Shown: positions 13,013 to 47,895 of the stretch, one piece after another
How the letters are laid out: every line of letters starts with the position of its first letter
Position numbering within the stretch: the first letter of the stretch is position 1
Assembly: GCA_040383885.1 (NCBI GenBank)
Contig: JBEICQ010000001.1
Location: 2,838-66,837, forward strand
DNA length: 64,000 bases
From: Flavobacteriales bacterium
GTDB taxonomy: Bacteria; Bacteroidota; Bacteroidia; UBA4408
Direction of reading: 5' to 3'
Notes under the pieces: model-generated
The model's input: the letters and a program-made list of their open reading frames with translations, nothing else
Database searches by the model: none
Told to the model about the DNA's origin: nothing
Position numbers and translations under genes: made by a program

Positions 13013-14031
13013 GTAAAGATTCGCGTTCCTTCTGAGCAATTTTTACAAATATCAAGCTCTGCCCTGCTCCTGAAAATTTTTTTTCGAAACTCCATATAAG
13101 GTTCAGAGAACCATATACTCCGAAAATCTGAGCGATTGATATTGCCAAACCGGTAACTTGCATCCTTGTCAAAACAGCAGGGTACTGCAAATCCATCCCA
13201 AGTGATTACAGGAGATTGCCACATTCTCCAACAGTGGTTATATAATTTATTTTTGATACGAAACTTTCCACTCTCCGTTTGGCTGTATCGTGTAAATGCA
13301 GGGTTTTGGGGGATAAGCGCATTCCCCTCCTGGAAATCATACACCTGAGCTGTTTTAAATCTTATTTCATCCACACCAATGCTGTTTGCAAATGCTTTGG
13401 CTTGATTTACTTCATGTTCGTTATGACTGGTAAGCAAAAACTGAAAAATAAGATATGGCGTTTTGCTGCGCATCTCTTTTTTCCACTTAACCAGCAATCG
13501 GGTTCCGCGAATCACTTTATCAAGCTCTCCTCCTATTCTGTAGCTACTGTAAGATTCCTGAGTCAGTCCGTCCAGAGAGATGATTAATCTGTCGAGACCG
13601 GAGAGGATGGTTTGCCTGGCGATATTGTCATCAATAAAATGTGCGTTGGTTGAAGTAGCAGTATATAGACCTGCCTGCTTTGCCATGGCCACCATTTTTA
13701 GAAAGTCTTTATGAATATAGGGTTCACCCTGGAAGTACAAATTGGCATACAAGGCTGTTTTCCCAATATCCTTCAATGCTTTTTCAATTGTTGCAGACTT
13801 GATATTTCCGGTATCGCGGGTAAAACTTCTTAATCCACTTGGGCATTGCGGACAGCGCAAGTTGCATGCAGTGGTTGGCTCCAAAGCGATACTTATTGGC
13901 ATTCCCCACACAATTGGTTTACGCATTATTCGCGACAGGTAATAGGAAACAATCACAAAAAGTGCATTCTTAAACCGTGCAGGCGTAAACTTACTAAGTA
14001 GGTTTATTGAATCGAGGATTTTCCTCATCAT
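13009..14031 (-). CDS. Radical SAM protein with a C-terminal SPASM-like Cys-rich domain
   Basis: CxxxCxxC motif TACNLRCPQCP and a GEP motif (YFQGEPYI). The C-terminal cysteines are WDGFAVPCCFD…CKNCSEG. Its start overlaps the upstream gene by 4 nt. Confidence 0.8.
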   Translation of the reverse strand: MMRKILDSINLLSKFTPARFKNALFVIVSYYLSRIMRKPIVWGMPISIALEPTTACNLRCPQCPSGLRSFTRDTGNIKSATIEKALKDIGKTALYANLYFQGEPYIHKDFLKMVAMAKQAGLYTATSTNAHFIDDNIARQTILSGLDRLIISLDGLTQESYSSYRIGGELDKVIRGTRLLVKWKKEMRSKTPYLIFQFLLTSHNEHEVNQAKAFANSIGVDEIRFKTAQVYDFQEGNALIPQNPAFTRYSQTESGKFRIKNKLYNHCWRMWQSPVITWDGFAVPCCFDKDASYRFGNINRSDFRSIWFSEPYMEFRKKIFRSRAELDICKNCSEGTRIFT

Positions 14032-22906: not shown

Positions 22907-23866
22907 TTATTCTTTCTCAATTTCTTCAACAAAGGCATTCAGGTTTTTTTCATAGGTTTTGTGCCTTGCCTTTATCTCCAGGCCTTTTTGGGTAAAGTGA
23001 TCCTGGTCGGCCATATACTCTTCCATTTTAGGAGGAATGGTATTGCTGTATAAGCCGGGAGCCCAATGCAATTGTCTGCCCAAAAACCAAATGGCCAATA
23101 CGGAAATACATACAAATGTTTGCCTGTGCAGGGGTTGAAAAACCGGAAGATTATCAGGGGAAATTTGCTTTTTCAAATACATCAAAAACAAAGAAAGGCT
23201 GCAAACAAAAAACAATATCAATGCAAGAAAAGATATTGGATTTCCTCCGGGCCAGTGTTGTGTTTTAAACATGATTCCCATAAAACTGATTGCCATAAAC
23301 AAGTTAGCGGTAACATGAAATACACCCGGCAAAAAACCCTTCATGGATTTGTGTAACCGAAAAGAAAAGGCACGGAAGAATAAATAGAAAAAAACACAAC
23401 ACCCTAAAACAAAAACAAGGGAGGCACCCGGAACATGTTGAAACTTGGAAGCCATCCCCACCAAGAGCATGGACATAAGCAAGGGAAAGACAAATTTCTG
23501 TTGCTTTTTGGCAGCTATCATCAATGTAAGTAAGGATAATAAAGGCAGGAAAGCTGCAGCGGCAAAAACCCATTCATTTTGGATGACAAATGAAAATTGG
23601 GGAAACACGAAAAGAAAATGAAATATCCACCAGGGGAAGAGAAGCCACTTGATTTTTTTACTTCCCGGATGCAGTTCAAAAGCCTCCAGCAACAGGAGGA
23701 ATGAGAGGATTCGATAACACCAGGCCACCAATTGCAAACCCCAGGCGTTTTGAGCCATGTTGGAAAAAAAGCCCAGCAAGACCAAGAACAGAAGGGCGGT
23801 CATCTGGGTATATCTGGTTTGGGAGTTTTTCATGGTTTCTTCAATAACATCCTTACTTATTGCCAA
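22907..23866 (-). CDS. Polytopic membrane protein (~8 TM) with four internal 2-TM repeats, each ending in a (K/R)xQHWPG-like motif. No recognised family
   Basis: Repeated motifs are EAFELHPGSKK, ASKFQHVPGAS, MFKTQHWPGGNP and GRQLHWAPGLY, each following a pair of hydrophobic helices. The cytoplasmic C-tail is charged. The start overlaps the STAND gene stop by 10 nt. Alternative ATGs exist at 23833 and 23803. Confidence 0.6.
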   Translation of the reverse strand: MAISKDVIEETMKNSQTRYTQMTALLFLVLLGFFSNMAQNAWGLQLVAWCYRILSFLLLLEAFELHPGSKKIKWLLFPWWIFHFLFVFPQFSFVIQNEWVFAAAAFLPLLSLLTLMIAAKKQQKFVFPLLMSMLLVGMASKFQHVPGASLVFVLGCCVFFYLFFRAFSFRLHKSMKGFLPGVFHVTANLFMAISFMGIMFKTQHWPGGNPISFLALILFFVCSLSLFLMYLKKQISPDNLPVFQPLHRQTFVCISVLAIWFLGRQLHWAPGLYSNTIPPKMEEYMADQDHFTQKGLEIKARHKTYEKNLNAFVEEIEKE

Positions 23867-26800
23867 TTGTTTATTACGGAATTGTATCTGTCAATAGAAA
23901 AGTTCTTCAGATTGGGTGTGTACAATTGGTTTCTCTTGTTGTAATGCATGATCATCCAGGTATTCAACCAAAAACGCATGCCTGATATTTCCTTATCAGC
24001 AATTAGTTGCTCTGCATCATAGAGCACACCCCTGTCAACGAGCCCCGAAAAATAACTGTACCTGTGCCTATCGTTTCTGCCTTCGGTATTAAAGGCAATG
24101 CGCCTGGCAAAACCCTCACAATCCTCTCCTCCTATTTGTGCCAGCATCCTCATGTACTTCTGTGGCATTTTGTTGAGCCGGTGTTTTTCCTTGGCAAACA
24201 GGTGTTGCATCAGGGGCAGGGCATTTTCTTCGTATCCCTTGTCTATAAAAGTTTGGGCCAACATCAGTACATCATCCTGCCTTATCAGGTGTAAGCGGCT
24301 ACTGTCGAGGAAAGTGGCCACTTCTTTTGCGCGCCCTCTTAGAATCAATGTTCTGCAAAGCCCGGGTATGTTAAACACATCAAAATACCTGTTTTCTGCT
24401 GGTATGCTGATTTCCTTTTTTTGGGGCAAGGCTTTTTTTCCGTACAACATGGTTACCCAATCAAAATAATTGGTGCGCGCAATTTCACTTGTTGCAAATG
24501 TTTTCTTAAGCAGTTTATGATAAAAAGATGCCAACTCCGGTTTGGTTTCAAAAAAGTTTTCATCAAGCGCTTGTCCTTGTATGGCTTTAAGCACATCCCC
24601 AGTCAAATACATGGTATCAGCAAGTCCAGACATCGCATAAAACTGTTCATTGTTGTTGTACACTTCACTTTGGGGCCAAGGAATTTCATCAGGATTATTT
24701 TCGTTCCAGTAAGACACATAAAATCGTCCATCAAAAGGATTTGCAGAGGACTCATAAAACGCCAAAAAAATACCTGCAAAGGTTCCTGGTATGGAATAAA
24801 TAAAATCACCCCCTGACATATCAATGGATGTATTGGATGCTTTACCTATGGGGCTGTTTTTGTTTTCTATTAGATTAAATTGCTGCCATGAGGTAAGTAT
24901 GGCTGCTTGTTCACCTGCCGTGTCGCCTGCATGCTTCAAATAAGCAGCGTATTTTTTGTGGTACAACGCCAGCAAAAGTTTTTGCTGGTTTGTATTCAAT
25001 CCTCTTTTCGTTATTGAGGCCATCAGGTATTCATGGGCAGCGTCTACTGCTTCTTTCGGCCAAAAATACTGGCACATGGGAGGGAATCTTTTTTCAATAT
25101 CCTGTCCACTTAAAAGATCCTGTACTGAGTAATACAACATTTTTACTGAGAGTTTCCGTATCCTTTCCTCCTTTCCGCAGATGCGTTCAATGGTCTTAAA
25201 GGTTTCGGAGGCCGTGTGTTTTTTGTTGGAAAGAAGTGTCCCGAACAAGAGCAGGTCGTCAATGGTTTTTAGCTTGCCTTCCCGGTTAAAACCCTGTTCG
25301 TTTTGAAAGGTATTGACAAAATCATTCCTTGAGGCGTATTCCTGTCTGTGGAAGAACAAAATTTGTGGGACAAATAAGCCGTTGTTTACATAGCCCAGCG
25401 GAGCAGCTTCGGTTTTTTCTGCATCAAATAACTTTCTGCATTTTTCCTGCAGGGCTGACACATCTCCATGGGTATCGAAGTAAGCAGACAACAAAGGATG
25501 CTCATGCCTCAGCATACAGTTGGCAGCAAACAGGGGATTGAAAGAAATTTTTTCTAGAAATACTTTTTTTGGATTTTTTTCCTTGTATCGAATCACTGCC
25601 AGCATCAGTTGTTCGTTTATGGCATGCGTCTTTTCTTTTAGCTCTTCTATGTCCGGTACACCGGCAATGCTTAACCATAAGAGCAGTTTCGTCCATACAT
25701 GTGCCGTCAGGATATTTACCTTCCCGATTTTTTGCTTGTTCAGTTGTATTGTCTGCTCTTCTGCAATTTTTTGAAAGGAGGAAAAACCATGGCCGGCGAG
25801 CTTGCTCAGAAACTGCAAGTCCCTGCTGTAAGAGGCAGTATCGATATCCTTCCTTAAAGACCAAACAATGGCTTCCTTGATGAGCGTAAACTGCGTAGAG
25901 TCTTCCATGTTGCGGATGGCCTCCATAAACACTTCTGCATCTGCCGAGTCGCGGTTGTAGCGGCTGTATTCTATCAAAAAGGCGGCTTTCTTTTTTTCGG
26001 AGATGTAGGGGTTATTGATGTTCTCCAGGTTAAATGCCATGACCCTGTCTATGACCTGGTCATTTTGTTTGGAGTACCAGTCGAAATAAAAATACATGCA
26101 GGAACAAAGCACCAGGACGACGCCGGCATGCATAAGCAGGCGGTTGGCGCCATAGGCCAGCACAAAGCGGCTGAGCATCAGGTTGCGGGCACTGGCTTTG
26201 ATAAACACCCCGGCTTCCTGCAATTCTTTTTTAAAATGTATTTTTCTTGCTTGCTTTTCCTCTCCTGACTCATCGTACTTCAACAACCACCCTGCCGAAG
26301 GTCTTTTTTGGGCAAACCAGTGCTCAAAATAATTCAGTGAGCCAATCGGCAAGAGGTAGCCTCTTTCTTTTTTGTTGGTATACCAACGCTGCATCTGCAC
26401 CAAAAAATCGGCATACACCATGCGGTCGTCGTATTCCTGCCGGGACAATTCCTGCAAAAGTTCCCAGTTACGAATCAGGCTCTCGTGGCTGATGTCGAGC
26501 AGGCTGTCGGGAGAAAGAACCGGCTGTTCATTGTCATAGGGCTTGATGAGGGTATTTCCCTGCTTTCGGAAATGAGAAACAAACACCGCCACATGTTCAG
26601 GGGTAAAATCCTGTTCAGCGATTATTTCCGCTATCTCAGCTACTGTCATGCGGTTGCGCACATACCTTCCGGCATCTGCTTTTACCAGGCACTGCAAAAG
26701 GGTATTTAAGATATAAGCGCTTCTGGAAACCCAGGGCATCTCTGAATACTTGCTTTTTACCTCTTCCAGTGTTTTTTCATATAACTCGCCTGCATGTGCA

Positions 26801-27837
26801 TTCAGCACATTCTCCAGAGAGGGACGGTCAAAATATTTTCTTTTCTGATCGCTTTGTTGTTCCAACCATGTGTCAAATTCCTTTCGCTCGTTCTCATCTA
26901 AAAAATCCGGTGGCACTCCTGCCAGTTTCACCAGGGAAGGAATGTCCATGGGTTTTTGTGTTTCTCCCTCTCCATAGGACAAGTGCCACAATTGGTTGAG
27001 TGCATGCTGCAAAACCGGCAACTGATCAAAGCCGCTGCCAATGGCATTTACAAGGGTTTCTGTAAGCCTGGGCGTAATGGCACCCCCGGCAAGTTTTGCC
27101 GGCTCTGCAATCACTTGCTGCAACTCTTTGCGCTTGAGTCGTGGAACAAAAAACTGTGAAAAGCCAATCATCTCGGGCAGGCCGCGGAAAGCCGCACATT
27201 GTCCGATATAATCGCTGCGCATGGTGCATACCACATAGACAGGCAGCGATTGTGCATGAGCAATCTTTGCTGTTTCAATCAGCAGGTTTAATACGAGTTG
27301 TGCTTCATCGCTCGGAACTCCGTGGCTAAAGTTTTCGGGATTGGTAAAGAACTCTTCAAACTGGTCGGCAAGGATAATGAGATTGGCACCTTTTTTTTCG
27401 AGATTTTTTTTGCCTTCCTCATCCGTGTTCTGGTATGCTGAACTTTGGGGATCCACAAAAAACCCTGAGGATGCATACAATTGCAGAAGGGCCGAGAATC
27501 CATGCTGCAACTTTTCTTTTACCTGTTTCTCCTCCATCTTTAGTGCAGAAGCTACAGCCTTTGCAAGCATTTGTAGCGGAGAACGCGAAGGCGTGAAATC
27601 AGCCAGAAGCCATGAATTGAAGCGTGCTTTAAAAAATCCTGCCCTGGCCCTTGGAATCAAACCGGCATAGGTGAGTGAAGATTTTCCGTCGCCACTGGCA
27701 CCGGTGATCATCAAAAACCTGTTCTGTTCGAGCAGTGTTACAGCTTTGGCAGTATGGGCATCTCTGCCTTTAAAAAAGATGGATTCGTCCTCGGTAAACG
27801 GGCGCAATCCGGGATATGGACAAATGAGTGGTTCCAT
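23857..27837 (-). CDS. nSTAND-type (STAND-superfamily) P-loop NTPase, 1326 aa, with a mid-protein TM helix and a long alpha-helical C-terminal region
   Basis: The N-terminus MEPLICPYPGLRPFTEDESIFFKGRD matches the conserved nSTAND lead-in. Walker A is FLMITGASGDGKSSLTY and a Walker B-like motif is LIILADQFEEFF. A predicted TM segment is LLMHAGVVLVLCSCMYFYF. About 800 aa of helical repeat-like sequence follows. Confidence 0.75.
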   Translation of the reverse strand: MEPLICPYPGLRPFTEDESIFFKGRDAHTAKAVTLLEQNRFLMITGASGDGKSSLTYAGLIPRARAGFFKARFNSWLLADFTPSRSPLQMLAKAVASALKMEEKQVKEKLQHGFSALLQLYASSGFFVDPQSSAYQNTDEEGKKNLEKKGANLIILADQFEEFFTNPENFSHGVPSDEAQLVLNLLIETAKIAHAQSLPVYVVCTMRSDYIGQCAAFRGLPEMIGFSQFFVPRLKRKELQQVIAEPAKLAGGAITPRLTETLVNAIGSGFDQLPVLQHALNQLWHLSYGEGETQKPMDIPSLVKLAGVPPDFLDENERKEFDTWLEQQSDQKRKYFDRPSLENVLNAHAGELYEKTLEEVKSKYSEMPWVSRSAYILNTLLQCLVKADAGRYVRNRMTVAEIAEIIAEQDFTPEHVAVFVSHFRKQGNTLIKPYDNEQPVLSPDSLLDISHESLIRNWELLQELSRQEYDDRMVYADFLVQMQRWYTNKKERGYLLPIGSLNYFEHWFAQKRPSAGWLLKYDESGEEKQARKIHFKKELQEAGVFIKASARNLMLSRFVLAYGANRLLMHAGVVLVLCSCMYFYFDWYSKQNDQVIDRVMAFNLENINNPYISEKKKAAFLIEYSRYNRDSADAEVFMEAIRNMEDSTQFTLIKEAIVWSLRKDIDTASYSRDLQFLSKLAGHGFSSFQKIAEEQTIQLNKQKIGKVNILTAHVWTKLLLWLSIAGVPDIEELKEKTHAINEQLMLAVIRYKEKNPKKVFLEKISFNPLFAANCMLRHEHPLLSAYFDTHGDVSALQEKCRKLFDAEKTEAAPLGYVNNGLFVPQILFFHRQEYASRNDFVNTFQNEQGFNREGKLKTIDDLLLFGTLLSNKKHTASETFKTIERICGKEERIRKLSVKMLYYSVQDLLSGQDIEKRFPPMCQYFWPKEAVDAAHEYLMASITKRGLNTNQQKLLLALYHKKYAAYLKHAGDTAGEQAAILTSWQQFNLIENKNSPIGKASNTSIDMSGGDFIYSIPGTFAGIFLAFYESSANPFDGRFYVSYWNENNPDEIPWPQSEVYNNNEQFYAMSGLADTMYLTGDVLKAIQGQALDENFFETKPELASFYHKLLKKTFATSEIARTNYFDWVTMLYGKKALPQKKEISIPAENRYFDVFNIPGLCRTLILRGRAKEVATFLDSSRLHLIRQDDVLMLAQTFIDKGYEENALPLMQHLFAKEKHRLNKMPQKYMRMLAQIGGEDCEGFARRIAFNTEGRNDRHRYSYFSGLVDRGVLYDAEQLIADKEISGMRFWLNTWMIMHYNKRNQLYTPNLKNFSIDRYNSVINNWQ

Positions 27838-35054: not shown

Positions 35055-36980
35055 ATGAACACACTGTTACACAAGGTTCCCGAGTCACAGGCTATCGAAC
35101 TTCCGGCCCTGGAAACTTCAAGGATGCTGACCGGTTTTGCATCCCTGATTTCTGCAGGAAAACTTCCTGAGAAAAAGGATGTTTTGTTCGCGTTGGCACT
35201 TAGCAGGGAATTGCGTAACCAGGCATACATCGGTCAAAGTCTATACTACTTGGCGCAGGTCTTCTTAGCCGATGAAAATCCACGCCAGTCACTTATTATT
35301 CTTGACGAAGCAAAAAAATTGCTTGCAGGTGAAGACAAGCCCCTTGTGATGCTGCAATGCCTCGAACTCACAGGCAAAGTGTATCAATCCCTGGAGGATT
35401 GTGAGATGGCGCTCGGCGAATACTTCTCAGCACTCGAAATCATCAATGAAAATCTTTCCCTTGAATACTGCAAGGGTTCCCTTCACCACAAAATTGGAAT
35501 GGCGTTTAAATCAACCCGTGATTTTGACAATGCCGTTTCACATTTCCGTAAATACCTTCATTTATCAGAAAAATACAAGCAGAGCAATGACATTGCCCAG
35601 GCCTGTTTTGAATTGGGCAACATGCTTACCCTGAGTGATGAGTATGCAGAAGCTGCTGTTTATCTGCGCAAATCACAGGAGATGGCTTTTGTCATGGGCA
35701 ATAAACATCTTGAATTGTTTGCTCTTGTTACCCGTGCCATTCTGAAAACCCGTTTGCGTCAGTTCAAAAAAGCCATGGCCTTGTTCGAAGAAGCAGAAAC
35801 TGGAATCCTGGCCAATGGTAATGAGGAAATAAAAGCCCACCTGCTGAGAAGCAAAGCCAAGTTGTTCATCGACATGGAACTCTATCCTGAAGCACTTCAA
35901 TTGCTGGATGAAGCTAGGATGTTGGCCGAAAAACTAAAATTAAACCAGGTGTTGCTGATGGTGTATAAATTTTACACCGTAGCCCATGAAGCCATGGGAA
36001 AATTTCAGTCGGCGCTGGAATTCAACAAACTTCATTTCAACCTTGAAAAGAAAATCCTTGAGGACCGTTCCAAAACCAGGGTGCATGGTCTTCAAATGAA
36101 GTTTCAGATGGAAGAAGTTCTGAAAGAAAATGAAATATTTAAATTAAAGAATGTGGTTCTGCAGCAGGCCAACGACAAGATCTTGCAACAGAAAAATAAA
36201 ATCGAGGCTTTTCATACCGAGCTTACTTCAAGTCTCACATATGCCAGCAAGATTCAGCGAGCTATTTTGCCACTGAAAGAAGAAATTTCCGAAACTTTGC
36301 CCGGACATTTTGTGTTCTGGAAGCCGCGTGATGTGGTGAGTGGCGACTTCTACTGGCATTTCAATGCAAAAACCCATACCTATATTGCTGCAGCCGATTG
36401 CACAGGTCATGGTGTACCGGGAGCCTTTATGAGCATGATCAGCAACACCATTCTCAACGAAGTGGTAGGCTCTAATCCGAATCTTTCTCCGGCTGAAATT
36501 CTCACCATGCTCAACCTGGAAATTAAAAAAGCACTGAAACAGGATTTGGGTGAAAAAGAAAGTCATGATGGTCTTGACATTGCCCTTTGTAAAATCGATA
36601 ATACCAGTGGTGTAATCACCTTTAGCGGAGCAAACAGACCTCTTTATTTGGTAAAAAAGGGAGCTGATGAAATTACAGAAATCAAATCAGACAAAGGTTC
36701 TATCGGCGGAATGCATTCTCATAATGACAGGTTTTTTGCGCAACATTCCATACAACTGGAAAAAGGAGACAGGGTGTATCTTTTTACAGATGGCATCACC
36801 GATCAGTTTGGTGAAGACACGAACAAAAAATTGCGCCCTGTTAATTTCCGAACCTGGGTGATGGAAAGTGCGGGTATCCCCTTTGATGAATTGGAACATT
36901 ACTATGCCGGAAAACTGGCTGAATGGCAAAAAGAGGAAAACCAAACAGACGACATTCTGGTGATGGGGTTTGGTTTGTGA
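35055..36980 (+). CDS. TPR-repeat PP2C (SpoIIE-family) protein phosphatase
   Basis: The N-terminal ~330 aa are TPR-like helical repeats. Coiled-coil sequence follows. The PP2C domain carries AADCTGHGVPGAFMSMIS and DGITDQFGE. Confidence 0.85.
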   Translation: MNTLLHKVPESQAIELPALETSRMLTGFASLISAGKLPEKKDVLFALALSRELRNQAYIGQSLYYLAQVFLADENPRQSLIILDEAKKLLAGEDKPLVMLQCLELTGKVYQSLEDCEMALGEYFSALEIINENLSLEYCKGSLHHKIGMAFKSTRDFDNAVSHFRKYLHLSEKYKQSNDIAQACFELGNMLTLSDEYAEAAVYLRKSQEMAFVMGNKHLELFALVTRAILKTRLRQFKKAMALFEEAETGILANGNEEIKAHLLRSKAKLFIDMELYPEALQLLDEARMLAEKLKLNQVLLMVYKFYTVAHEAMGKFQSALEFNKLHFNLEKKILEDRSKTRVHGLQMKFQMEEVLKENEIFKLKNVVLQQANDKILQQKNKIEAFHTELTSSLTYASKIQRAILPLKEEISETLPGHFVFWKPRDVVSGDFYWHFNAKTHTYIAAADCTGHGVPGAFMSMISNTILNEVVGSNPNLSPAEILTMLNLEIKKALKQDLGEKESHDGLDIALCKIDNTSGVITFSGANRPLYLVKKGADEITEIKSDKGSIGGMHSHNDRFFAQHSIQLEKGDRVYLFTDGITDQFGEDTNKKLRPVNFRTWVMESAGIPFDELEHYYAGKLAEWQKEENQTDDILVMGFGL

Positions 36981-38469: not shown

Positions 38470-39894
38470 TCAGCTAAATATTTTTCCAGGATTTAAAATC
38501 TCCTTGGGGTCGAAAACTTTTTTGATTGCTTTCATGAGCTGCAACTGAGCAGGTGTTTGCACCAGGTGCATATATCTTTTTTGCACATATCCGATGCCAT
38601 GTTCACCGCTAATGGTTCCTCCCAGATTTTTACACAGGATAAATATTTCTGAAATGGCAGCATGAATGTCATGCTCCCAAAAATTGTCGCTTAAACTTCC
38701 TTTTAGAATGTTGATATGGAGATTTCCATCACCTGCATGTCCATAGCAGATAGAGCGAAAACCATATTTAAGTCCAATCTCTTTCACGCCTTCTATAAGT
38801 TCGGGGAGTTGTGCCCTCGGTACAACGGTATCTTCTTCTTTATAAACAGAACTGGCCCTTACTGCTTCAGCAACGGAGCGGCGAAGTTTCCATAAGCGAT
38901 TTTTATCTGCTTCATCCTGGGCAAGAAGTATTTCTCCGGTTTCAAAAGTTGTAAGCAATTCATAAGTTTTCTCAAGTTCTTCGCGGATGTGTTCCGTGTT
39001 GTTTCCATCAAATTCAATCAAGAGTTGTGCCTCTGCTTCGGCATCAGGTGCAAATCCTTCTACCCCCAAAAATGCACAGGTTAAATCAATGGCGTCCTTC
39101 TCCATGAATTCGAGTGCAGAAGGATTCAGTCCTTTGCTAAATAGCAGTGAAACAGCTTCACATGCCTGCCGAATTTTTTTAAACGGAACCAACATCACCT
39201 GTCTGTACATGGGATATGGAATGAGCTTGACCCTGATTTGTGTAACTACCGCAAGGGTTCCCTCACTGCCAATCATCAGGTGGGTGAGGTTGTATCCCGT
39301 TGAGTACTTTAAGGTGTTTGCGCCTGTCCAAAAAATTTCACCATCAGGTAGAACTACTTTCAGATTGAGAATATAATCCCTGGTTGTACCATATTTGAGT
39401 GCCCTTGGTCCTCCGGAACTCAGCGCCACATTTCCGCCCAGGAAGCACGAACCTTTGCTGGCAGGATCGGGCGGATAAAAAAGTCCCAATTCCTGAACGG
39501 TCTGTTGCAACACTTCATTAATCACACCGGGCTCTACAGTTGCCTGAAGGTTGTTGGTATCTATTTCAAGAATTCGGTTAAATTTTTCCATGGAGAGGAT
39601 GACGCCTCCCCACACAGGCAATGCTCCACCACTAAGGCCCGTTCCTGCACCTCTCACCGTTAAGGGAATACTCCTTTGGTTGCAATGCTTTAAAACAACA
39701 GCAATCTGAGACTCATCTGCAGGAATGAGAACTACTTCAGGCACAAACACGAAATCCTCGGTAGCATCGGATGCATAAGCAAGCTTCTCTTCATGATTCA
39801 CCCGGATTCCTCCTTCACCCAAATACTCCCTGAATAAATTGAGATCGTGAGCTTGTACCTGATTGTATGTGTTCATGTTGCAAATTAAATGCAA
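38470..39894 (-). CDS. FAD-linked oxidase (GlcD / D-lactate dehydrogenase family)
   Basis: FAD-binding PCMH domain motifs (…RGAGTGLSGGALP…), and a C-terminal FAD-oxidase_C domain. Confidence 0.85.
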   Translation of the reverse strand: MHLICNMNTYNQVQAHDLNLFREYLGEGGIRVNHEEKLAYASDATEDFVFVPEVVLIPADESQIAVVLKHCNQRSIPLTVRGAGTGLSGGALPVWGGVILSMEKFNRILEIDTNNLQATVEPGVINEVLQQTVQELGLFYPPDPASKGSCFLGGNVALSSGGPRALKYGTTRDYILNLKVVLPDGEIFWTGANTLKYSTGYNLTHLMIGSEGTLAVVTQIRVKLIPYPMYRQVMLVPFKKIRQACEAVSLLFSKGLNPSALEFMEKDAIDLTCAFLGVEGFAPDAEAEAQLLIEFDGNNTEHIREELEKTYELLTTFETGEILLAQDEADKNRLWKLRRSVAEAVRASSVYKEEDTVVPRAQLPELIEGVKEIGLKYGFRSICYGHAGDGNLHINILKGSLSDNFWEHDIHAAISEIFILCKNLGGTISGEHGIGYVQKRYMHLVQTPAQLQLMKAIKKVFDPKEILNPGKIFS

Positions 39895-39981
39895 TTGTAT
39901 GCAAAAGAAAATATCACTGTCTTTGTTAGCTGCGATTTTCCCATTAGTTTCACTTTATTTGCATTTGATAAAACCAACACC

Positions 39982-42201
39982 ATGGATGCGTTGATCAAAT
40001 TTTACCCGCGAATCATCTGTTTTCTTTTTTTCATCTGCCCTACCTGTTCTGTCATACAGGGAGAAACAGCAGAAAAGTGGAAACTGCAAGATATTTTTTT
40101 AGGGCAGAAATTCAGCGTTCAGACGGGGTCTGCTTCAGTACCTTCAGTGAATCCTCAGAAATACCTTTTCCTGCAGGAGGGTGATCAATTCCGGGGAATC
40201 CTTGCTGCTTCCTATCTTTCCGGGGAAATAACCGATACTGTGATTGATGGAAACACCATCCGATGCAAGGATACCGCTGTTTCATTTTCTTCATTTATTG
40301 CTTCGCCAGATGAACGCCATTTTTTACTGCAAGGCAAGCTTTTCCCTATCTACCGCCATTCCTTCTCCGCCTTATATTACCTTGTTGAAAAAGGCAACAA
40401 ATCCGCTGTTGATTTTGCATCAGGCAAAAGTATTTCCTCTGTTTCTTTTTCACCGGACTCAAAGAGAATCGCCTATGTATTTGAAAGGAACCTATATGTG
40501 TATGACATCGCTTCTAAAAAAACACATCCCCTTACCACTGACGGAAAGGAAAATAAGATCATTAACGGAGGAAGTGATTGGGTATATGAAGAGGAGTTTG
40601 GATTAACTGAAGCGTATTGCTGGAGCGCGGATGCAGGGCATGTGGCATTTTACCGATTTGATGAGTCAGCCGTGAAAGAATTCAGCTTTACTTCCTATAA
40701 AAATCAGCTTTATCCGACAGCAGTTACCTGGAAATATCCAAAGGCGGGAGAAGATAATTCCAAAGTAGAAATATGGGTCTACGACCTCGAAAAAAAATCT
40801 TCTTCTTGCGCCTTTAAAACAGGACAGGACATGGAGTATGTTCCGCACATACAATGGGCAGGAAAAAAGAATAAACTACTGATCCATGCCATGAACAGAC
40901 TTCAGAACCGGATTGAATTTCAGTTATATGCTATATCGGACAAAAGCTGCAAGAATATATACACCGAGTCTTCTCCGGAAAATTATATTGATGCACCCGG
41001 TACATGTATTTTCGACAGCAATGGCAAGCTCTATTTTCTATCTGAACACCAAGGCTGGAAACATCTCTACAGCCTCCCTCAGGACGGCGGAAAACTACAG
41101 CAGCTTACCAAAGGCAACTGGGAAATTGATGCGATAATTGCTTATGATGCTGCTTCAGGGTACATCTATTTTAGAGCGAACAAAGACCATGTGCTTTCCC
41201 ATCAGATTTACAGAACAGATTTAAACGGAAAAAAGATCCAAAAAATATTTGATTCAGAAGGAACGCAATCTGTCGTTTTTAATGCCGACTTCACCCTGGC
41301 GATGCTTACCCATTCTTCGGCCAATAAGCCCCCGCAAAAAGTGCTGACCAATACTCAAACAGGAAAAAAAATACGGATGATCTCTTCTAACGACAGTGTT
41401 CTTGCCCGCTTAAACCGAGTGCCTTTCTCGCCTAAAAAATTTATTCGTATTCCCGCTTCGGCGGGTGATTCCATGAATGGATCGGTGATTTATCCCCAAA
41501 ACTTCAATCCTTCTTTGAAATATCCTGCCATTATTCATATCTACGGTGGGCCTGGCCGTAATATGGTGGTTGATCAATGGTCGAATAGCGAAATGCTTTG
41601 GCATCAATACATGAGCGCCAGGGGATACTTTATCTTTTCTTTCGATGGACATGGCACCCAGATGAGAGGTAAGAAATTCAGAGCATCTACTTATGGTCAA
41701 CTTGGTAATCTTGAGGCACAAGATATGCTGATGGCCTCCCGTTACCTCAAATCTCTCGGATACATCGACTCTCTGAAAATTGGTATTCAAGGATGGAGTT
41801 TTGGCGGATTTCTCAGTCTTCTGACGCTAGCCAAAGGCCCTTCTCATTTTGCTGCGGCTATTTCGGTTGCCCCTGTTACACATTGGAAGTACTATGACAA
41901 TATCTATACCGAGAGATACATGGGTTTACCGGATAAAAACCCTCTCGGGTATAACCAAAACTCTCCGCTTGAATATGCTTCTTCCATCAAAGGAAAATTA
42001 TTTCTTATTCATGGCACGGCAGACGACAATGTGCACTTTCAGAATTCGGTAGAAATGATTCGGCGATTACAGGAATCCGGAATCCCTTTTGATTTGATGA
42101 TTTACCCTGATAAAAACCATGGCATCAGTGGTGGAAAAACCAGGCTGGATGTATATTCCAGGATTTCTGAATGGTGGGATGATGTCTTTGGAATGGATTA
42201 G
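39982..42201 (+). CDS. S9-family serine peptidase, dipeptidyl-peptidase IV-like
   Basis: N-terminal DPP-IV beta-propeller region and a C-terminal alpha/beta hydrolase with the nucleophile motif GWSFGG. The signal peptide starts at the internal ATG (MDALIKFYPRIICFLFF…). The track start at 39889 would overlap the divergent gene. Confidence 0.85.
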   Translation: MDALIKFYPRIICFLFFICPTCSVIQGETAEKWKLQDIFLGQKFSVQTGSASVPSVNPQKYLFLQEGDQFRGILAASYLSGEITDTVIDGNTIRCKDTAVSFSSFIASPDERHFLLQGKLFPIYRHSFSALYYLVEKGNKSAVDFASGKSISSVSFSPDSKRIAYVFERNLYVYDIASKKTHPLTTDGKENKIINGGSDWVYEEEFGLTEAYCWSADAGHVAFYRFDESAVKEFSFTSYKNQLYPTAVTWKYPKAGEDNSKVEIWVYDLEKKSSSCAFKTGQDMEYVPHIQWAGKKNKLLIHAMNRLQNRIEFQLYAISDKSCKNIYTESSPENYIDAPGTCIFDSNGKLYFLSEHQGWKHLYSLPQDGGKLQQLTKGNWEIDAIIAYDAASGYIYFRANKDHVLSHQIYRTDLNGKKIQKIFDSEGTQSVVFNADFTLAMLTHSSANKPPQKVLTNTQTGKKIRMISSNDSVLARLNRVPFSPKKFIRIPASAGDSMNGSVIYPQNFNPSLKYPAIIHIYGGPGRNMVVDQWSNSEMLWHQYMSARGYFIFSFDGHGTQMRGKKFRASTYGQLGNLEAQDMLMASRYLKSLGYIDSLKIGIQGWSFGGFLSLLTLAKGPSHFAAAISVAPVTHWKYYDNIYTERYMGLPDKNPLGYNQNSPLEYASSIKGKLFLIHGTADDNVHFQNSVEMIRRLQESGIPFDLMIYPDKNHGISGGKTRLDVYSRISEWWDDVFGMD

Positions 42202-44105
42202 GAGTGCTTCCAATGAAACGAAAGAATAAGTCTTTCTATGTCCTTTCTGATAAACCGCGTGGCCGGTGCCAGCGAGTCGGTATTAACAGGCACATTGAAG
42301 TAAAGTGCGCCGCGCACAAAATGATGGACACTGTCTGTGAGATAAAACTGAGTGGAACTGGCAGCATCTCCGCCTAGCTCATACAAAAGACCAAACACCC
42401 TTTCCTCCTTTTTTTCAATTTTCAGTTCCTCAATGGAAGATGCTTTCACCGTGTGTTTATAAGCCAGGGTACGGGCATCCTCGATGTGTTTTGCGAGGTC
42501 GTTGCTCAGGGAAAAATAGCTGATGAACAAGGTAGCTTTCTGTTGATCAAATTGCAGGTTCATCCAATACTTGCCTTCCTGTATTCCTTTGTATGCTTCT
42601 GGTCTTGCATAAACCGGATAATCAAAACCATAAGGATATTCAGCAGACAACCCGGTGTATTTTTTTTCGGGAAAATCAATTCTCATATACCCTCTGGGCT
42701 TGGGTGGAAATTCGGGCTGGCAGGAGCTTATCAACAAAGTAGCACAGAGGAGGAGAGCAAGTGGCAGGACAGGTTTGCTTTTTGATTCCTCCTCAATCAT
42801 CAGTTTCACTCTTTTAATTCTTTTGCGATCAACTGACTCAACTAAAAATGCATAATTTTTAAAAGTAATTTTTTGGTTTTTTACAGGTATTGAGCCTGTA
42901 ATCTCAAGGATAAAACCGGCTAGTGTATCGGCTTCTCCACGGTTTTTTTCAAACACCTCTCCATCAATGTGAAGCACTTTGTAAAAATCATTAAGCATGA
43001 TTCTGGCTTCAAAGATATAAGTATGGTCATCCAGCTTGCTGTACACCAATTCATCATCATCGAACTCATCATTGATATCGCCAAGAATTTCTTCTATGAT
43101 GTCTTCGAGTGTGACCAAACCGTTAGTTGCACCGTATTCATCCACCACAATTGCCATGTGCATTTTCTGGTGCTGAAACTCTTTAAGCAAATCATCAATT
43201 TTTTTGTTCATTGGAACATAGTAGGGTTTTTGCATAAGGTTGTTCCATGCAAAATCGTCTTCTTTTTCCAGATGAGGGAGCAAATCTTTTGTGTAGATGA
43301 TTCCCACAATGTGATCATCGTTTAGTTCATACACGGGTATTCTCGAGAACCCTGCTTCTACAATAGATGAGAGGGCTTTTCTGAAAGGAAGATCTTTACT
43401 GATGGAAAACATCTGCAGCCTGGGGCGCATGATTTCTCTTGCCTCTGTGTTGCCGAATTCCACAATTCCTTTCAGGATTTTTTGTTCTTCTTCCGGCGAG
43501 TGCTCATTGCTGGTTAATTCAAGTGCTGTTGAAAGATCATCAACAGAAAGCCGGGTTTTGGAATCTTTAAAGTATCTGTCGAAAAGAGAGGTAGACCGGA
43601 TGAGCAAATAACTGAAGGGACGAAAAAACCGCTCTGCAATATCCAACGGAAACACCAGTATCAGAGCGGCCCTTTTGGCGTGTCGACGGGTATATATTTT
43701 GGGGATGATTTCTCCAATTAGAAGAATGAGGAAAGTAACCAGGATTACCCTGAGCAGAAACTCAAGATCAGGAGAAAAGCCGTGAAAAATCTCTTTGGAA
43801 ACGGACTCAGAAAGGATAATTACAAAAATATTGACCAGGTTGTGAAGAAGTACTACAGTAGCAATCAATTTTTTCTGCTTACCCAAGAGCTCGATAATCT
43901 TGCGTGAGGCGTAGGATTCCGACTGGCTTAACTCATCAAGATCGGAAGGAGACAATGAAAAAAAAGAAACTTCTGCTGCTGCTACCAGGGCTGAAAGTGC
44001 AAGAAAAAAAACAATCCCGGGGATACTCATCCACAGCATGGGATTCCATTGAAGGAGAATAAATGCAAAGATGCTACTGACCGGGTCGTCCATATAAAAT
44101 TTCAA
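42198..44105 (-). CDS. gldE: GldE (DUF21-CBS pair-CorC_HlyC) fused in-frame to GldD-like gliding-motility lipoprotein
   Basis: The first ~430 aa are a CNNM/TlyC-type module (4-TM DUF21, two CBS domains, CorC C-domain). With no intervening stop, the frame continues into MIEEESKSKPVLPLALLLCATLLISSCQ…, a lipoprotein-type signal/anchor, and a ~190-aa GldD-like domain. ssb lies immediately upstream with a 4-nt overlap. Confidence 0.75.
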   Translation of the reverse strand: MKFYMDDPVSSIFAFILLQWNPMLWMSIPGIVFFLALSALVAAAEVSFFSLSPSDLDELSQSESYASRKIIELLGKQKKLIATVVLLHNLVNIFVIILSESVSKEIFHGFSPDLEFLLRVILVTFLILLIGEIIPKIYTRRHAKRAALILVFPLDIAERFFRPFSYLLIRSTSLFDRYFKDSKTRLSVDDLSTALELTSNEHSPEEEQKILKGIVEFGNTEAREIMRPRLQMFSISKDLPFRKALSSIVEAGFSRIPVYELNDDHIVGIIYTKDLLPHLEKEDDFAWNNLMQKPYYVPMNKKIDDLLKEFQHQKMHMAIVVDEYGATNGLVTLEDIIEEILGDINDEFDDDELVYSKLDDHTYIFEARIMLNDFYKVLHIDGEVFEKNRGEADTLAGFILEITGSIPVKNQKITFKNYAFLVESVDRKRIKRVKLMIEEESKSKPVLPLALLLCATLLISSCQPEFPPKPRGYMRIDFPEKKYTGLSAEYPYGFDYPVYARPEAYKGIQEGKYWMNLQFDQQKATLFISYFSLSNDLAKHIEDARTLAYKHTVKASSIEELKIEKKEERVFGLLYELGGDAASSTQFYLTDSVHHFVRGALYFNVPVNTDSLAPATRFIRKDIERLILSFHWKHS

Positions 44106-44530
44106 AAGGGTAATCCGTCCATATCGGATAGATCGGCATGGGAACCCTGTTCTTCCTCTCCGGGAGTATGGGATTCATGACCCTGGTATTCTTTGCGGTT
44201 TCCCAGTATAAGCAAATTGTCTACAACCACCTCGGTCCTGTATTGCTTCACTTTGTTTTGGTCTTCCCAATTGCGGGTATGCAGTTTCCCTTCAAGGTAC
44301 ACTGTGGAACCTTTTTTGAGGTTCCGTTCGCAGTAATCTGCATGGTTTCTCCACGCTACCACATTGTGCCATTCAGTTTGTTCTTTGCGGCTTCCGTCTT
44401 TGTCGCGGTATACTTCAGTGGTGGCAAGTGAAAACTTGGCAATGCGTATTCCCTGCTCAGTAGTTTTTACCTCTGGGTCGCGGCCAAGATTGCCAACTAG
44501 GATAACTTTGTTGATTCCGGTGGAGGCCAT
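44102..44530 (-). CDS. ssb: Single-stranded DNA-binding protein
   Basis: OB-fold N-terminus (KVILVGNLGRDPEVK…WHNVVAWR), a Gly/Glu-rich linker, and the canonical acidic tip …DMDGLPF. Confidence 0.9.
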   Translation of the reverse strand: MASTGINKVILVGNLGRDPEVKTTEQGIRIAKFSLATTEVYRDKDGSRKEQTEWHNVVAWRNHADYCERNLKKGSTVYLEGKLHTRNWEDQNKVKQYRTEVVVDNLLILGNRKEYQGHESHTPGEEEQGSHADLSDMDGLPF

Positions 44531-45307: not shown

Positions 45308-46360
45308 ATGGAAATGGCCTTTATTGCTTTTGTAATTGCTTTTTGTGTGGTTGTTTTTTTTACACCATCACTCATAAAGGTCTCCATCCTTAAACACTTG
45401 ATGGACAAACCCGATGGGGAGCGGAAATTTCATGAAAGAGATATTCCTACCATTGGTGGCATCATGATTTTTGCAGGCACCCTTTTTGCGTATTCCATCT
45501 GTTTTCCTTCCCCGTACATAGAAAAATTCAACTATGTGCTAGCTGCTGTTTTTATCACTTTTTTTGTAGGTATCAAGGATGATATCATCGGTACTGCGCC
45601 CCTGAAAAAATTGGGTGCAAACCTGCTTGTTGCATTTATCATGGTTTTTGTTGGCGGCATTAAAATCAAAGGTCTGCATGGTATTTTCGGAATGAATGAA
45701 TCTTTTGGAGGATTTTCTGAAGCATTTTCTGTCTTTACCATTATTGTGGTGATGAATGCTTTTAATCTGGTCGATGGTGTTGACGGTCTTGCCGCTGGCC
45801 TTGGATTTATCTCCAGCATGGTATTCGGCTGCTGGTTTCTTTTTGCGGGCAATTCCGTAGAAAGCAGCTTATGTTTTTCGCTGGCCGGTGCCCTGCTCGG
45901 ATTTTTGGGATATAATTACTCTCCGGCTCGCATTTTTATGGGCGACTCAGGTTCTCTTACCATTGGTATTGTTATGGCTTTTTTAAGTATTCAGCTTGTT
46001 GAGTATGAAAAAAGTTACTACCTCACCACACCTCTCAATACCATTTCAAAACCTGCACTCGCTGTGGCCAGCCTGTTTTACCCCTTAACCGATACGCTGA
46101 GGGTTTTTATCCTCAGAGTGGCGCGGGGAAAATCCCCCCTTAGTGCTGACCGAAGTCACATTCATCACAGGTTACTCGACCTGGGTTTTACCCACCGCGG
46201 CACCGTAAACATCATTTATCTTCTCACTTTTTGTTCCGTTTTTACCTGCTTTATCACCCGGTCACTTACACCCGAGTTGTCCCTGTTCTGCACCATTGCC
46301 GTACCTTACCTTTTGCTTCAGATTCCCGCTCTGCTTAAGTCCAAACAATGTATCTGGTAA
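45308..46360 (+). CDS. Glycosyltransferase family 4 (MraY/WecA-like) undecaprenyl-phosphate sugar-1-phosphate transferase
   Basis: IPTIGGIMIF and NLVDGVDGLAAG motifs in a multi-TM protein. Confidence 0.85.
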   Translation: MEMAFIAFVIAFCVVVFFTPSLIKVSILKHLMDKPDGERKFHERDIPTIGGIMIFAGTLFAYSICFPSPYIEKFNYVLAAVFITFFVGIKDDIIGTAPLKKLGANLLVAFIMVFVGGIKIKGLHGIFGMNESFGGFSEAFSVFTIIVVMNAFNLVDGVDGLAAGLGFISSMVFGCWFLFAGNSVESSLCFSLAGALLGFLGYNYSPARIFMGDSGSLTIGIVMAFLSIQLVEYEKSYYLTTPLNTISKPALAVASLFYPLTDTLRVFILRVARGKSPLSADRSHIHHRLLDLGFTHRGTVNIIYLLTFCSVFTCFITRSLTPELSLFCTIAVPYLLLQIPALLKSKQCIW

Positions 46361-47895
46361 AGTGGTTTTTTGGAATACTCTTTCTGTTGCTGCCTGCCAT
46401 CAGTGTGTGTGGTCAAGATACGCTTTTACCAATTACTTATAGCCACATTGATGATTGTGTAATGCAGTATCCCAAAGGCTTTGCCCTGCCTGATAACCAT
46501 GTGCGCCCTTCGGATTCTCTCCCCTCAAAATGGATGCTTTCTCATAAGCCTTTGCGCCTGTCAGGAAACAAGACACCGGAGAAATTACTGATAGACTTTT
46601 TTCCCGTGATGGAGATATGGGGAGGATATGATTCACAAACGAGTAAGTTAATCAAACAAGGATTTATGGGTGCCGGCGTGAATCTTCTCTGGAAAAACAG
46701 TTTGCATTTTTTCGCATTTGCCGGTGCGGGTATGAGCGCTCAACCTGCATATATTGATAGCATAACTTCTCTTTGGGGGATTATCCCGGGCACGGCCACT
46801 GCCAAACCAATTACAAACGGTACCTATCAGTTCAGGCACGCAAAAGTAAGTCTGGCTTATCGTTTACATAAATATGTGACAGCAGAATTAGGCTATGGTA
46901 AAAATCGCTTTGGAAACGGTATCAGAAGCTTGTATCTGGATGATGTTGCTTCACCCTATCCCTATTTGCGCATCAACTCACACCTGGGAAAAATCCGCTA
47001 CACCAACTTGTTTTGTAACTTTTATGATATCCGGGGAAGTCAAGGCCAGCGCGATAACTTTGTAAACAAGTATGCTGCCATGCATTACCTATCCTGGGAC
47101 ATCATCCCTTGGTTGCAATTCAATGCTTTTGAAGCCATTGTATTTCCAAACAGAAACCAAAATGGAAGCGGACATTTCTTTGAACCCAACTACCTGAATC
47201 CAGTTATCTTCTTGCGACCGGTGGAGTATGCAGTGGGCTCTCCGGACAACTCACTTCTTGGTGGCGGATTGTCTGTTCGGCTTTTAAAACATTACAGAAT
47301 CTATGCAAATGTGATCCTTGATGAATTCTTATTAAGCCGCATCCGGGAGCGTAAAGGATGGGTAGACAACAAGCAGGGCTTGCAGGCAGGCATTGTGGTT
47401 CAGCAGCCCATGAACATAAAGCATTTGCAGATACAGGCTGAAATCAATTGGGTAAGACCCTATACCTATTACCACAGGAACTCACTTCAGAATTTTGCCC
47501 ACATGAACCAGCCGCTTGCACATGCCCTGGGGGCAAACTTTATAGAATATTTTGTGCGGGCAGATTATTTTTTTTTCCGGAATATCCGCTTGCAGGCAAA
47601 TCTGATGTATGCTAAAATTGGATATGATTCCCGTGGATTGAGTTACGGCCAGAATGTGTATCAGCCGATGCATTTGAGACCGAGTGAATTCGGCAATGTG
47701 GTAGGCCAGGGATTATTCACCCGGGTATTGCTGTTGAGTACCACCCTGAACTGGAACCCTGATCAGCTTTCAGGCTTGAGTTTCTTTGCCTCCTTTATCT
47801 ATCGTCAATCTGTCAATGTTGAATCACAGAACAAATCATTTATTCCTACACTTGGTATTCGTTCTCAGTTCATGCCTTTTAACAGATTCTTCTGA
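46348..47895 (+). CDS. Outer-membrane beta-barrel protein, possibly capsule-assembly Wzi-like
   Basis: Signal peptide, and alternating aromatic/hydrophobic beta-strand character ending in …F. It sits directly downstream of the GT4 gene. It shares the motif Q-N-F/Y-x-H-x-N-Q-x-L-A-H-x-x-G-A-N-F with the partial ORF at 63180-64000. Confidence 0.4.
   Translation: MYLVKWFFGILFLLLPAISVCGQDTLLPITYSHIDDCVMQYPKGFALPDNHVRPSDSLPSKWMLSHKPLRLSGNKTPEKLLIDFFPVMEIWGGYDSQTSKLIKQGFMGAGVNLLWKNSLHFFAFAGAGMSAQPAYIDSITSLWGIIPGTATAKPITNGTYQFRHAKVSLAYRLHKYVTAELGYGKNRFGNGIRSLYLDDVASPYPYLRINSHLGKIRYTNLFCNFYDIRGSQGQRDNFVNKYAAMHYLSWDIIPWLQFNAFEAIVFPNRNQNGSGHFFEPNYLNPVIFLRPVEYAVGSPDNSLLGGGLSVRLLKHYRIYANVILDEFLLSRIRERKGWVDNKQGLQAGIVVQQPMNIKHLQIQAEINWVRPYTYYHRNSLQNFAHMNQPLAHALGANFIEYFVRADYFFFRNIRLQANLMYAKIGYDSRGLSYGQNVYQPMHLRPSEFGNVVGQGLFTRVLLLSTTLNWNPDQLSGLSFFASFIYRQSVNVESQNKSFIPTLGIRSQFMPFNRFF

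Follow-up and report, generated by a model that had tools for sequence, protein, structure and literature searches.

The genes gldE and gldD, which encode a transporter-like inner-membrane protein of the CNNM/CorC type and a lipoprotein and are separate in model bacteria, are joined into one gene in the window analysed here, a stretch of 64,000 nucleotides from an uncultured Flavobacteriales bacterium, as they are in many uncultured Bacteroidota. This GldE-GldD fusion is a real, heritable translational fusion and not an error. With a probability of roughly 0.55, it is best explained as a fusion with an internal lipoprotein signal, through which the GldD part would be exported and then processed by Lgt and LspA at C458. 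Few accessory proteins of gliding and type IX secretion are, to our knowledge, as poorly understood as GldD and GldE, and neither the location nor the partners nor the fold of GldD had been defined before. According to the literature on Flavobacterium johnsoniae, GldD has a role in gliding and in type IX secretion and is needed for the stability of GldJ and GldK. Literature searches returned no earlier description of a GldE-GldD fusion.

As the first-pass annotation had stated, both genes share one reading frame: the ORF listing contains a single ORF on the minus strand (42198..44105, 635 aa), in which GldE and GldD are both complete and no stop separates them. The minus strand reads AAA AGA GTG AAA CTG ATG ATT GAG GAG GAA across the junction (...KRVKL-MIEEESKSKPVLPLALLLCATLLISSCQPEF...) and is stop-free. 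A reassignment of stop codons was considered and rejected, as none of the stop codons occurs at this site. The same chain matches the NCBIfam model of GldE (TIGR03520, 517.1 bits, cutoff 376.05, covering positions 3-407 of the 408 in the profile), the NCBIfam equivalog model of GldD (TIGR03512, 212 bits, cutoff 120, positions 2-182 of 182) and the Pfam model of the GldD lipoprotein (PF25593, 206 bits, cutoff 27), and in the numbering of the 635-aa ORF the Pfam domains are CNNM/DUF21 (aa 31-202), CBS, CorC_HlyC (aa 357-436) and GldD_lipo (aa 465-632). Rfam and tRNA scans gave no match at the locus. The 635-aa version, which mechanically reaches a TTG at 44105, is probably too long, and the start codon is probably the ATG at 44093 (MDDPVSS...), which gives a fused gene of 631 aa plus stop (42198..44093, minus strand). 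This ATG is called as the start in a 94% identical relative, P0001, and is conserved in the homologues P0003 and P0005, and the TTG overlaps the stop codon of ssb, which lies directly upstream of the fused gene (44102..44530, minus strand). An SSB gene (PF00436) also adjoins gldE upstream in loci L081-L091, which shows that the adjacency of ssb and gldE is conserved, and the order ssb-gldE-gldD, present here with gldD fused downstream, is the same in split loci.

Among the 120 best database matches (homologue clusters) 108 are fused, at 42-94% identity to the window protein. A comparison of orthologous loci, as it had been proposed with the first annotation, revealed fused as well as split arrangements, with 42 out of 80 retrieved GTDB species-representative loci, all of them MAGs, being fused and stop-free at the junction. 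Since the exact window protein is absent from the database records, its relative P0001 was used, and the corresponding 631-aa product occurs in identical copies on at least 21 independent contigs (JGI, ENA, Logan, NCBI), which come from different samples and have the same synteny. That one genome carries an error of sequencing or assembly, or a recent stop loss with inactivating effect, could be argued from the general prior of errors in MAG-derived sequence and from nothing else. These contigs, the 108 fused clusters together with the 42 fused species representatives among the retrieved loci, and the fact that both halves exceed the curated family cutoffs speak against it, and the conserved fused homologues have already refuted it. 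A stop codon appearing at the junction upon re-sequencing, which had been named among the observations that would overturn the fusion, is likewise contradicted by the at least 21 contigs. The fused proteins are now annotated merely as 'GldD', 'GldE' or 'putative hemolysin'. GldD has a further fusion partner in another lineage, a PnuC-like transporter.

A lost stop codon, one of the three explanations offered at first, thus fails as an artefact but holds as the evolutionary origin. In 31 of 38 split loci, a sample that is biased towards same-frame arrangements, the stop codon and the ATG of gldD are in frame and only 0-9 nt apart. Given this single in-frame stop and short gap, one point mutation is enough for a fusion, and the fused gene would have arisen by loss of the lone in-frame stop codon that divides gldE from gldD in split lineages. 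On the tree, fused and split loci are intermingled, with six or more changes of state, and switches also occur between close relatives (L072/L075, and L033/L041 within a fused clade), which suggests that the products of both states are equivalent. P0110 and P0115, which among unfused GldE proteins come closest to the window protein (62-63% identical over the GldE part), were considered as a nearby split state and rejected, because they have no downstream gldD and represent an 'unlinked' state. Reversal of the fusion requires a new stop as well as a new start, possibly a ratchet, so conservation is no proof of benefit, and the persistence of the fusion may be due to such a ratchet.

The following parts, all on the minus strand and given in the numbering of the 631-aa protein, can be distinguished. 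The CNNM/DUF21 transmembrane domain of GldE (aa 27-198, 43500..44015; PF01595, E 2.5e-32) lies in a region with hydropathy peaks at aa 17-48, 75-98 and 106-135 and AF2 helices with a pLDDT of about 90. It is followed by the cytoplasmic CBS-pair region (approximately aa 214-336, 43086..43454; two Pfam CBS stretches, E 2e-16, inside the TIGR03520 match) and by the CorC_HlyC domain (aa 353-431, 42801..43037; PF03471, E 4.8e-17), which ends in the basic motif DRKRIKRVKL. A polar linker, MIEEESKSKP (aa 432-441, 42771..42800), leads into the hydrophobic helix VLPLALLLCATLLISS (aa 442-457, 42723..42770; KD hydropathy peak 2.35, AF2 helix 443-456), which, judged by its sequence, is the former h-region of the GldD signal peptide plus the lipobox positions -3 to -1 (I-S-S). 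The hydrophobic segment therefore does not stand at the N-terminus of the product but begins at aa 442 of 631, after the whole of GldE. It had been counted as a fifth transmembrane helix; it is the fourth strong hydropathy peak, and 'fifth' depends on how the DUF21 helices are counted. Based on conservation, the lipobox cysteine C458 (42720..42722) is predicted to be lipidated and to become the first residue of mature GldD. The GldD domain (aa 459-631, 42201..42719) is predicted to be periplasmic and to adopt a Mog1/PsbP-like alpha/beta fold; it is structurally similar to structures of the Mog1/PsbP family and has no sequence-level match to any PDB chain. The full-length AF2 model has a pTM of 0.34, with low confidence for the helix and the linker (pLDDT <50 at aa 437-444), and hence is silent on the packing of the helix and GldD against GldE.

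The first codon of the linker is an in-frame ATG, M432, which does exist as had been noted, although at 42798..42800 instead of about 42801. GldD could be translated separately from this codon in the present genome, so that the ORF would functionally be two cistrons. In the window protein and its 94% identical relative the ATG coincides precisely with the junction, the upstream sequence AAAAGAATTAAAAGAGTGAAACTG is A-rich, as start contexts in Bacteroidota often are, and a TAnnTTTG motif is found at 43017. However, the A-rich context is dictated by the KRIKRVK codons, and TAnnTTTG occurs by count at 0.44 per kb, which makes its presence at 43017 uninformative; matches to the Bacteroidota -7 promoter motif within gldE are no more frequent than expected by chance. 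Furthermore, the junction Met is restricted to the window protein and P0001. The 75% identical relative P0002 (KLTILPQT...) lacks it, as do nearly all other fused proteins, and a Met of any kind upstream of the hydrophobic run is present in only 23 of 132 unique fused junctions. The junction Met takes the place of a conserved Thr in the GldE tail (K-L/V-T-I/L) and does not correspond to the start of split gldD, and the resulting n-region MIEEESKSKP is net acidic compared to the MKK or MFKK of split GldD. As the Met is confined to one lineage and relatives have Thr in its place, internal initiation is not the general mechanism, and for this genome it stays a candidate, albeit an improbable one. 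The remaining initial explanation, a real fusion whose former signal peptide spans the membrane, is strongly supported: over 100 homologues, with identities as low as 42%, are fused, and the majority have no Met at the junction.

The junction of these homologues is conserved in a way that points to lipoprotein processing. The sequence L-I-S-S-C458 is the sole match to the lipobox core pattern in the window protein. C458 is invariant in 73 aligned fused proteins, where it is the only invariant residue within aa 423-465, and in A1 as well, and the Cys is present in 108/108 fused matches. Position -1 is S, G or A in 131 of 132 unique fused junctions, position -3 is L, F or I in about 94% of these, and the core pattern surrounds this Cys in 105/109 fused proteins. 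The hydrophobic run is flanked on its cytoplasmic side by K or R in 77 of 97 junctions, and the residues past the Cys are acidic (E/D-rich) in the fused forms and resemble a lipoprotein sorting or export signal. The full conservation of the lipobox in the fused proteins is absent from the first-pass annotation.

CNNM/CorC proteins have their CBS and CorC domains in the cytoplasm, as seen in the solved structures of CorB and CorC. With these domains cytoplasmic, a helix running from inside to outside is topologically required, and the internal helix (aa 442-457) would leave the cytoplasm just past the basic CorC tail and deliver the GldD domain to the periplasm, an export step that we regard as very probable. 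Lgt would then add diacylglycerol to C458, which is probable, and LspA would cut between S457 and C458, for which the chances are even or slightly better. One gene would in this way give rise to two inner-membrane-born products at a ratio of 1:1, a GldE with an additional C-terminal transmembrane helix and a normal mature lipoprotein GldD. The conserved lipobox argues for lipidation and probably also for LspA cleavage, as opposed to a plain extra transmembrane anchor. It is nevertheless conceivable, though distinctly less probable than processing, that the fusion is never cleaved and that the helix is a stable additional transmembrane segment, which holds the GldD domain at the periplasmic face of GldE with the Cys lipidated or not, similar to ABC transporter membrane domains that are fused to substrate-binding domains. 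The uncharged run, short in both states, is slightly longer in fused proteins (median 19 residues, up to 30) than in split signal peptides (median 16), which counts against cleavage and could reflect a drift to a stable anchor. Moreover, fused clades persist to about 42% identity, and the literature searched on internal lipoboxes, internal signal peptides and lipobox polyproteins yielded no example of an internal lipobox processed by LspA. Earlier work reportedly placed GldE in the inner membrane and found GldD associated with membranes, which would also fit a tether. However, a plain anchor would not require that about 130 diverged junctions keep an invariant Cys, S/G/A at -1 and L/F/I at -3, the repeated switching between fused and split states in close relatives is simpler if the mature products are the same, and the acidic residues past the Cys look like a lipoprotein sorting or export signal.

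If processing at C458 takes place, one gene may yield two membrane proteins via a retained lipoprotein processing site. Going one step further, GldE-GldD might represent a natural bacterial 'lipo-polyprotein', one chain that is split by Lgt and LspA at an internal lipobox, an idea we put forward tentatively and give slightly less than even odds. As such a junction resolves itself, the loss of a stop codon that fuses an inner-membrane protein, its C-terminus in the cytoplasm, to a lipoprotein encoded downstream would be almost neutral and would arise repeatedly. The PnuC-GldD fusion would then be a second example, and these proteins would be the first internal substrates of signal peptidase II to be described as a class. 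In any case, the internal lipobox offers a simple test case for Lgt and LspA at non-N-terminal sites, with a bearing on lipoprotein prediction and gene annotation. For GldD itself, a natural and conserved fusion would fix the topology, with GldD on the periplasmic side and emerging beside GldE, and it enforces 1:1 synthesis of both proteins. That the fusion is informative about the association of GldD and GldE, as suggested at first, is accepted only with the caveat that a PnuC-GldD fusion exists too: it gives independent, but not conclusive, support for GldD and GldE being a working pair.

Among known systems, the ssb-gldE-gldD operon of Flavobacterium is the closest, with the same families (TIGR03520 and TIGR03512), gene order and ssb neighbour, and with a GldD that also carries a signal peptide and a lipobox. 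In the loci of 12 Flavobacterium species, gldE and gldD are in the same frame and mostly separated by TAA and at most 6 nt, whereas the fused gene lacks the stop codon and encodes one polypeptide of 631 aa, in which the signal peptide is internal and follows a polar linker of roughly 10-25 aa; the residues past the Cys are E/D-rich in the fused proteins and K-D-D in Flavobacterium. The predicted Mog1/PsbP-like fold groups GldD with accessory envelope lipoproteins like DcrB of Salmonella and LpqN of M. tuberculosis, which serve membrane complexes from their periplasmic or extracytoplasmic face, but the sequence identity is only 6-11%, and function is not transferable from the fold alone. In the ABC importers OpuA and GlnPQ, a substrate-binding domain is fused to the membrane domain, uncleaved and with the lipobox lost. 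What is a lipoprotein in other lineages is there tethered to its membrane partner via an extra transmembrane or signal-anchor segment, which is similar to GldE-GldD, but the lipobox is kept in essentially all GldE-GldD fusions. FbcH of Bradyrhizobium japonicum, the precursor of cytochromes b and c1, is reportedly cleaved at an internal signal peptide by signal peptidase I, as demonstrated experimentally. Like GldE-GldD, it has a polytopic inner-membrane protein upstream of a periplasm-facing partner that retains its own signal sequence, so that one gene leads to two membrane proteins; the difference is that cleavage of FbcH belongs to signal peptidase I and was shown, whereas GldE-GldD carries a lipobox and would be cleaved via the Lgt/LspA route.

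The gldE and gldD coding regions lie in one open reading frame on the minus strand (42198..44105 in the ORF listing of the window, 635 aa from a TTG start), in which the end of the CorC domain (...SVDRKRIKRVKL) runs stop-free into MIEEESKSKPVLPLALLLCATLLISSCQPEFPPKPRGY..., and the presence of both full family profiles in this one chain confirms what the first-pass annotation had read there. The chain carries the Pfam domains CNNM/DUF21, CBS, CorC_HlyC and GldD_lipo, and in NCBIfam it matches full-length GldE (TIGR03520, 517 bits with a cutoff of 376) as well as full-length GldD (TIGR03512, 212 bits with a cutoff of 120, profile positions 2-182 of 182). Both components have the features expected of their families and are standard GldE and GldD members, except for the GldD signal peptide, which is not N-terminal. 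Since the TTG at 44105 overlaps the stop codon of the upstream ssb, and the 94% identical homologue P0001 starts with the counterpart of the ATG at 44093 (MDDPVSS...), which other homologues keep as well, the fused gene most likely spans 42198..44093 and encodes 631 aa, which is the numbering used here. Its 3' end overlaps a convergent S9/DPP-IV-type peptidase gene (39889..42201, plus strand) by 4 nt, stop codons included (window 42198-42201), so that no terminator fits between the two genes; the ssb-gldE loci L081-L088 show the overlap as well.

The window's exact protein was not found in the sequence collection. At least 21 contigs, drawn from separate samples of JGI, ENA, Logan and NCBI, encode the identical 631-aa product of P0001, which refutes a reading of the fusion as an artefact. 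Common neighbours on these contigs are Glycos_transf_4, a nadD-like gene, ssb, the fused gene, the convergent S9/DPP-IV peptidase and an FAD oxidase. In the window, the end of the Glycos_transf_4 gene (45308..46360) is overlapped by 13 nt by a 515-aa ORF without Pfam match (46348-47895, plus strand), whose position is conserved in L081-L085. Fused proteins account for 108 of the 120 best database matches (42-94% identity), all 558-805 aa long and with all four Pfam domains, save one 483-aa fragment that lacks only CNNM. One of them, P0064 (805 aa, on a 1.07-Mb JGI contig), has a second GldD-like domain in tandem after the first (…FEWKN-RIIFPQKEF…SFSWQ). Scanning GTDB species representatives with the CorC-to-GldD region yielded 80 loci, and the comparison of fused and split orthologous loci proposed in the first-pass annotation gave 42 without a junction stop and 38 with one or more. 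A real fusion, one of the three explanations offered in that annotation, is the right one. Overall the fusion is a minority architecture, since only 7 of the best 150 among the 920 GldD-family representatives in the non-redundant library (E <= 1e-3) reach at least 600 aa. All fused loci come from MAGs, most of them sampled in lakes and activated sludge and all recorded as Bacteroidota, Bacteroidia or Flavobacteriales bacterium. That no cultured isolate among the loci retrieved carries the fusion probably explains why literature searches found no described GldE-GldD fusion; as far as could be found, it is already visible in databases, as "gliding motility lipoprotein GldD", "GldE" or "putative hemolysin", yet undescribed.

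Internal initiation of GldD at the junction ATG (M432, 42798..42800, minus strand), also considered in the first reading, is unlikely as a general mechanism, because this Met is lineage-specific: in the alignment of all matches no protein other than P0001 and that of the window has it. P0002, a 75% relative, reads KLTILPQTNGSK... at the junction, and the family consensus there is K-[LV]-T-[IL]. Given this restriction and the consensus Thr, M432 is a Thr-to-Met substitution in the GldE tail and not a relic of a gldD start codon. Any Met upstream of the hydrophobic run is present in only 23 of 132 unique fused junctions. For this particular genome, the A-rich sequence upstream of M432 could speak for initiation, but the A-richness is forced by the KRIKRVK codons and an acidic n-region would result, which makes such a start improbable here as well.

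The lipobox is conserved. Its Cys, C458 (42720..42722, minus strand), does not vary among 73 aligned fused proteins, and no other residue in aa 423-465 is invariant. Of the 132 unique fused junctions, 131 have S, G or A at position -1 and about 94% have L, F or I at -3. The core pattern {DERK}(6)-[LIVMFWSTAG](2)-[LIVMFYSTAGCQ]-[AGS]-C, which we take to be PROSITE PS51257, matches at exactly the lipobox Cys in 105 of 109 fused proteins, and the match at C458 is the only one in the window protein. Of 97 junctions, 77 have K or R as the residue bordering the hydrophobic run N-terminally. Hydropathy peaks comprise three strong ones in DUF21 (aa 17-48, 75-98 and 106-135) and a fourth at aa 439-460. 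Solved CorB/CorC structures place both the CBS pair and the C-terminal domain in the cytoplasm, so the junction helix has to cross the membrane outwards, as a signal peptide does, and the basic DRKRIKRVK tail agrees with the positive-inside rule. With a 73-sequence alignment, AlphaFold2 predicted GldE and GldD confidently (pLDDT mostly 85-93), with a single helix 443-456 between low-confidence linkers; at a pTM of 0.34 the model is uninformative on domain packing. No matching PDB chain was found by sequence.

The locus holds a real fusion with a conserved lipobox, a consistent topology and no conserved internal start. We infer that the junction helix would act as an internal signal exporting GldD, that C458 would be lipidated by Lgt, and that LspA would cut before C458, so that GldE with one extra C-terminal TM helix and an ordinary mature GldD would be made side by side in a 1:1 ratio. 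Cleavage by LspA is favoured with a probability of about 0.5-0.55. The main rival, in which the fusion stays uncleaved as a permanent tether, draws on the slightly longer uncharged run before the Cys (median 19 residues in fused proteins versus 16 in split GldD signal peptides) and on literature searches, in which no internal LspA substrate was found. However, a mere TM anchor would not be expected to keep an invariant Cys and small -1 residues over ~130 diverged junctions, lipidated precursors are LspA substrates as a rule, and the fact that close relatives have switched repeatedly between the fused and the split state is easiest to account for if both yield identical products, so that a tether is possible but the less probable outcome. 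The fusion would gain in interest if the internal lipobox were shown to be processed.

With regard to its origin, in 31 of the 38 split loci, a sample biased to same-frame arrangements as loci were ranked with a junction-spanning query, the gldD ATG follows the gldE stop in frame at a distance of 0-9 nt. Several Flavobacterium species read GTA ACG ATT GAA TAA TTA AAA ATG TTT AAA at the split junction. With this spacing, a single base change in the stop codon would create the fusion. On a neighbour-joining tree built for 80 species with their GldE and GldD segments concatenated (43 fused, the window counted in, and 38 split), both states interleave: the split locus L072 is sister to the fused L075, and the split loci L033 and L041, with the stop directly followed by ATG, are nested inside a large fused clade. 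Fitch parsimony counts at least six changes, which is only rough because deep nodes are unsupported. The fused state may work like a ratchet, since going back takes a start that can be used as well as a new stop, and its persistence need not equal advantage. A third state is found in the unfused GldE proteins that come closest to the window protein, with 62-63% identity over the GldE part (L089, 2501-3814; L090 and L091, 2501-3760): they keep ssb-gldE with no gldD downstream. The gene following them is a 143-aa ORF without Pfam match on record or an opposite-strand Rce1-like gene, and gldD must be elsewhere or absent in these lineages.

Fused proteins mostly have E, D or S at positions +2 to +4 after the Cys; Flavobacterium has K-D-D there. 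The acidic stretch (aa 459-462 in the window, at 42708-42719, and the corresponding residues of L001-L080) reads C-[E/D]-[E/S]-[E/D]-[Y/F] in fused proteins and C-K-D-D-V in Flavobacterium. These acidic residues resemble the Bacteroidota lipoprotein export signal (C-X-K-(D/E)2-X, SDDDD, SDDFE; PMC5080379) and hint at a possible destination of GldD beyond the inner membrane, which is a lead rather than a result and fits poorly with the reported membrane location of GldD. If GldD truly leaves the inner membrane, cleavage would be obligatory.

Elsewhere in the window, a 1326-aa protein (23857-27837, minus strand) has an N-terminal nSTAND1 NTPase domain (PF20703, E 3.5e-63) followed by ~830 C-terminal residues without Pfam match at E <= 1e-5. 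Two large PP2C/SpoIIE-type phosphatases have sensor-like N-termini, one with Reg_prop and Y_Y_Y domains (1117 aa; 14028-17381, minus strand), the other with TPR repeats (641 aa; 35055-36980, plus strand). A pseudouridine synthase (11191-12648, minus strand; S4 and PseudoU_synth_2, aa 252-443) has an N-terminal extension of ~250 aa without Pfam match at the same threshold.

GldD is reported to be a lipoprotein required for gliding and for GldJ and GldK stability (PMC9127263). A second fusion, in P0310/P0318 (436 aa; L092, 4001-5311), has a PnuC-like nicotinamide riboside/NMN transporter in front of GldD: PF04973 (aa 51-240) continues in frame into the hydrophobic stretch and lipobox (...KKNMGWLKPFLGCGLLLLLPLLCSC), both again retained, and into GldD_lipo (aa 272-434). 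It forms a 22-member cluster, all of 436 aa and on many independent contigs, and no gldE is found near the gene at this locus. The PnuC-GldD fusion weakens the GldE-GldD fusion as "Rosetta stone" proof of GldD-GldE contact, and fits the idea that a self-resolving lipoprotein signal renders stop-loss fusions harmless; the GldD-GldE partnership finds its support more in conserved adjacency and in the number and age of the GldE-GldD fusions. For a cleaved GldE-GldD, the closest functional analogue known to us is FbcH of Bradyrhizobium, a cytochrome b-c1 precursor that is cut by signal peptidase I at an internal signal peptide, whereas ABC transporter membrane domains fused to substrate-binding domains would be the analogue of an uncleaved one.
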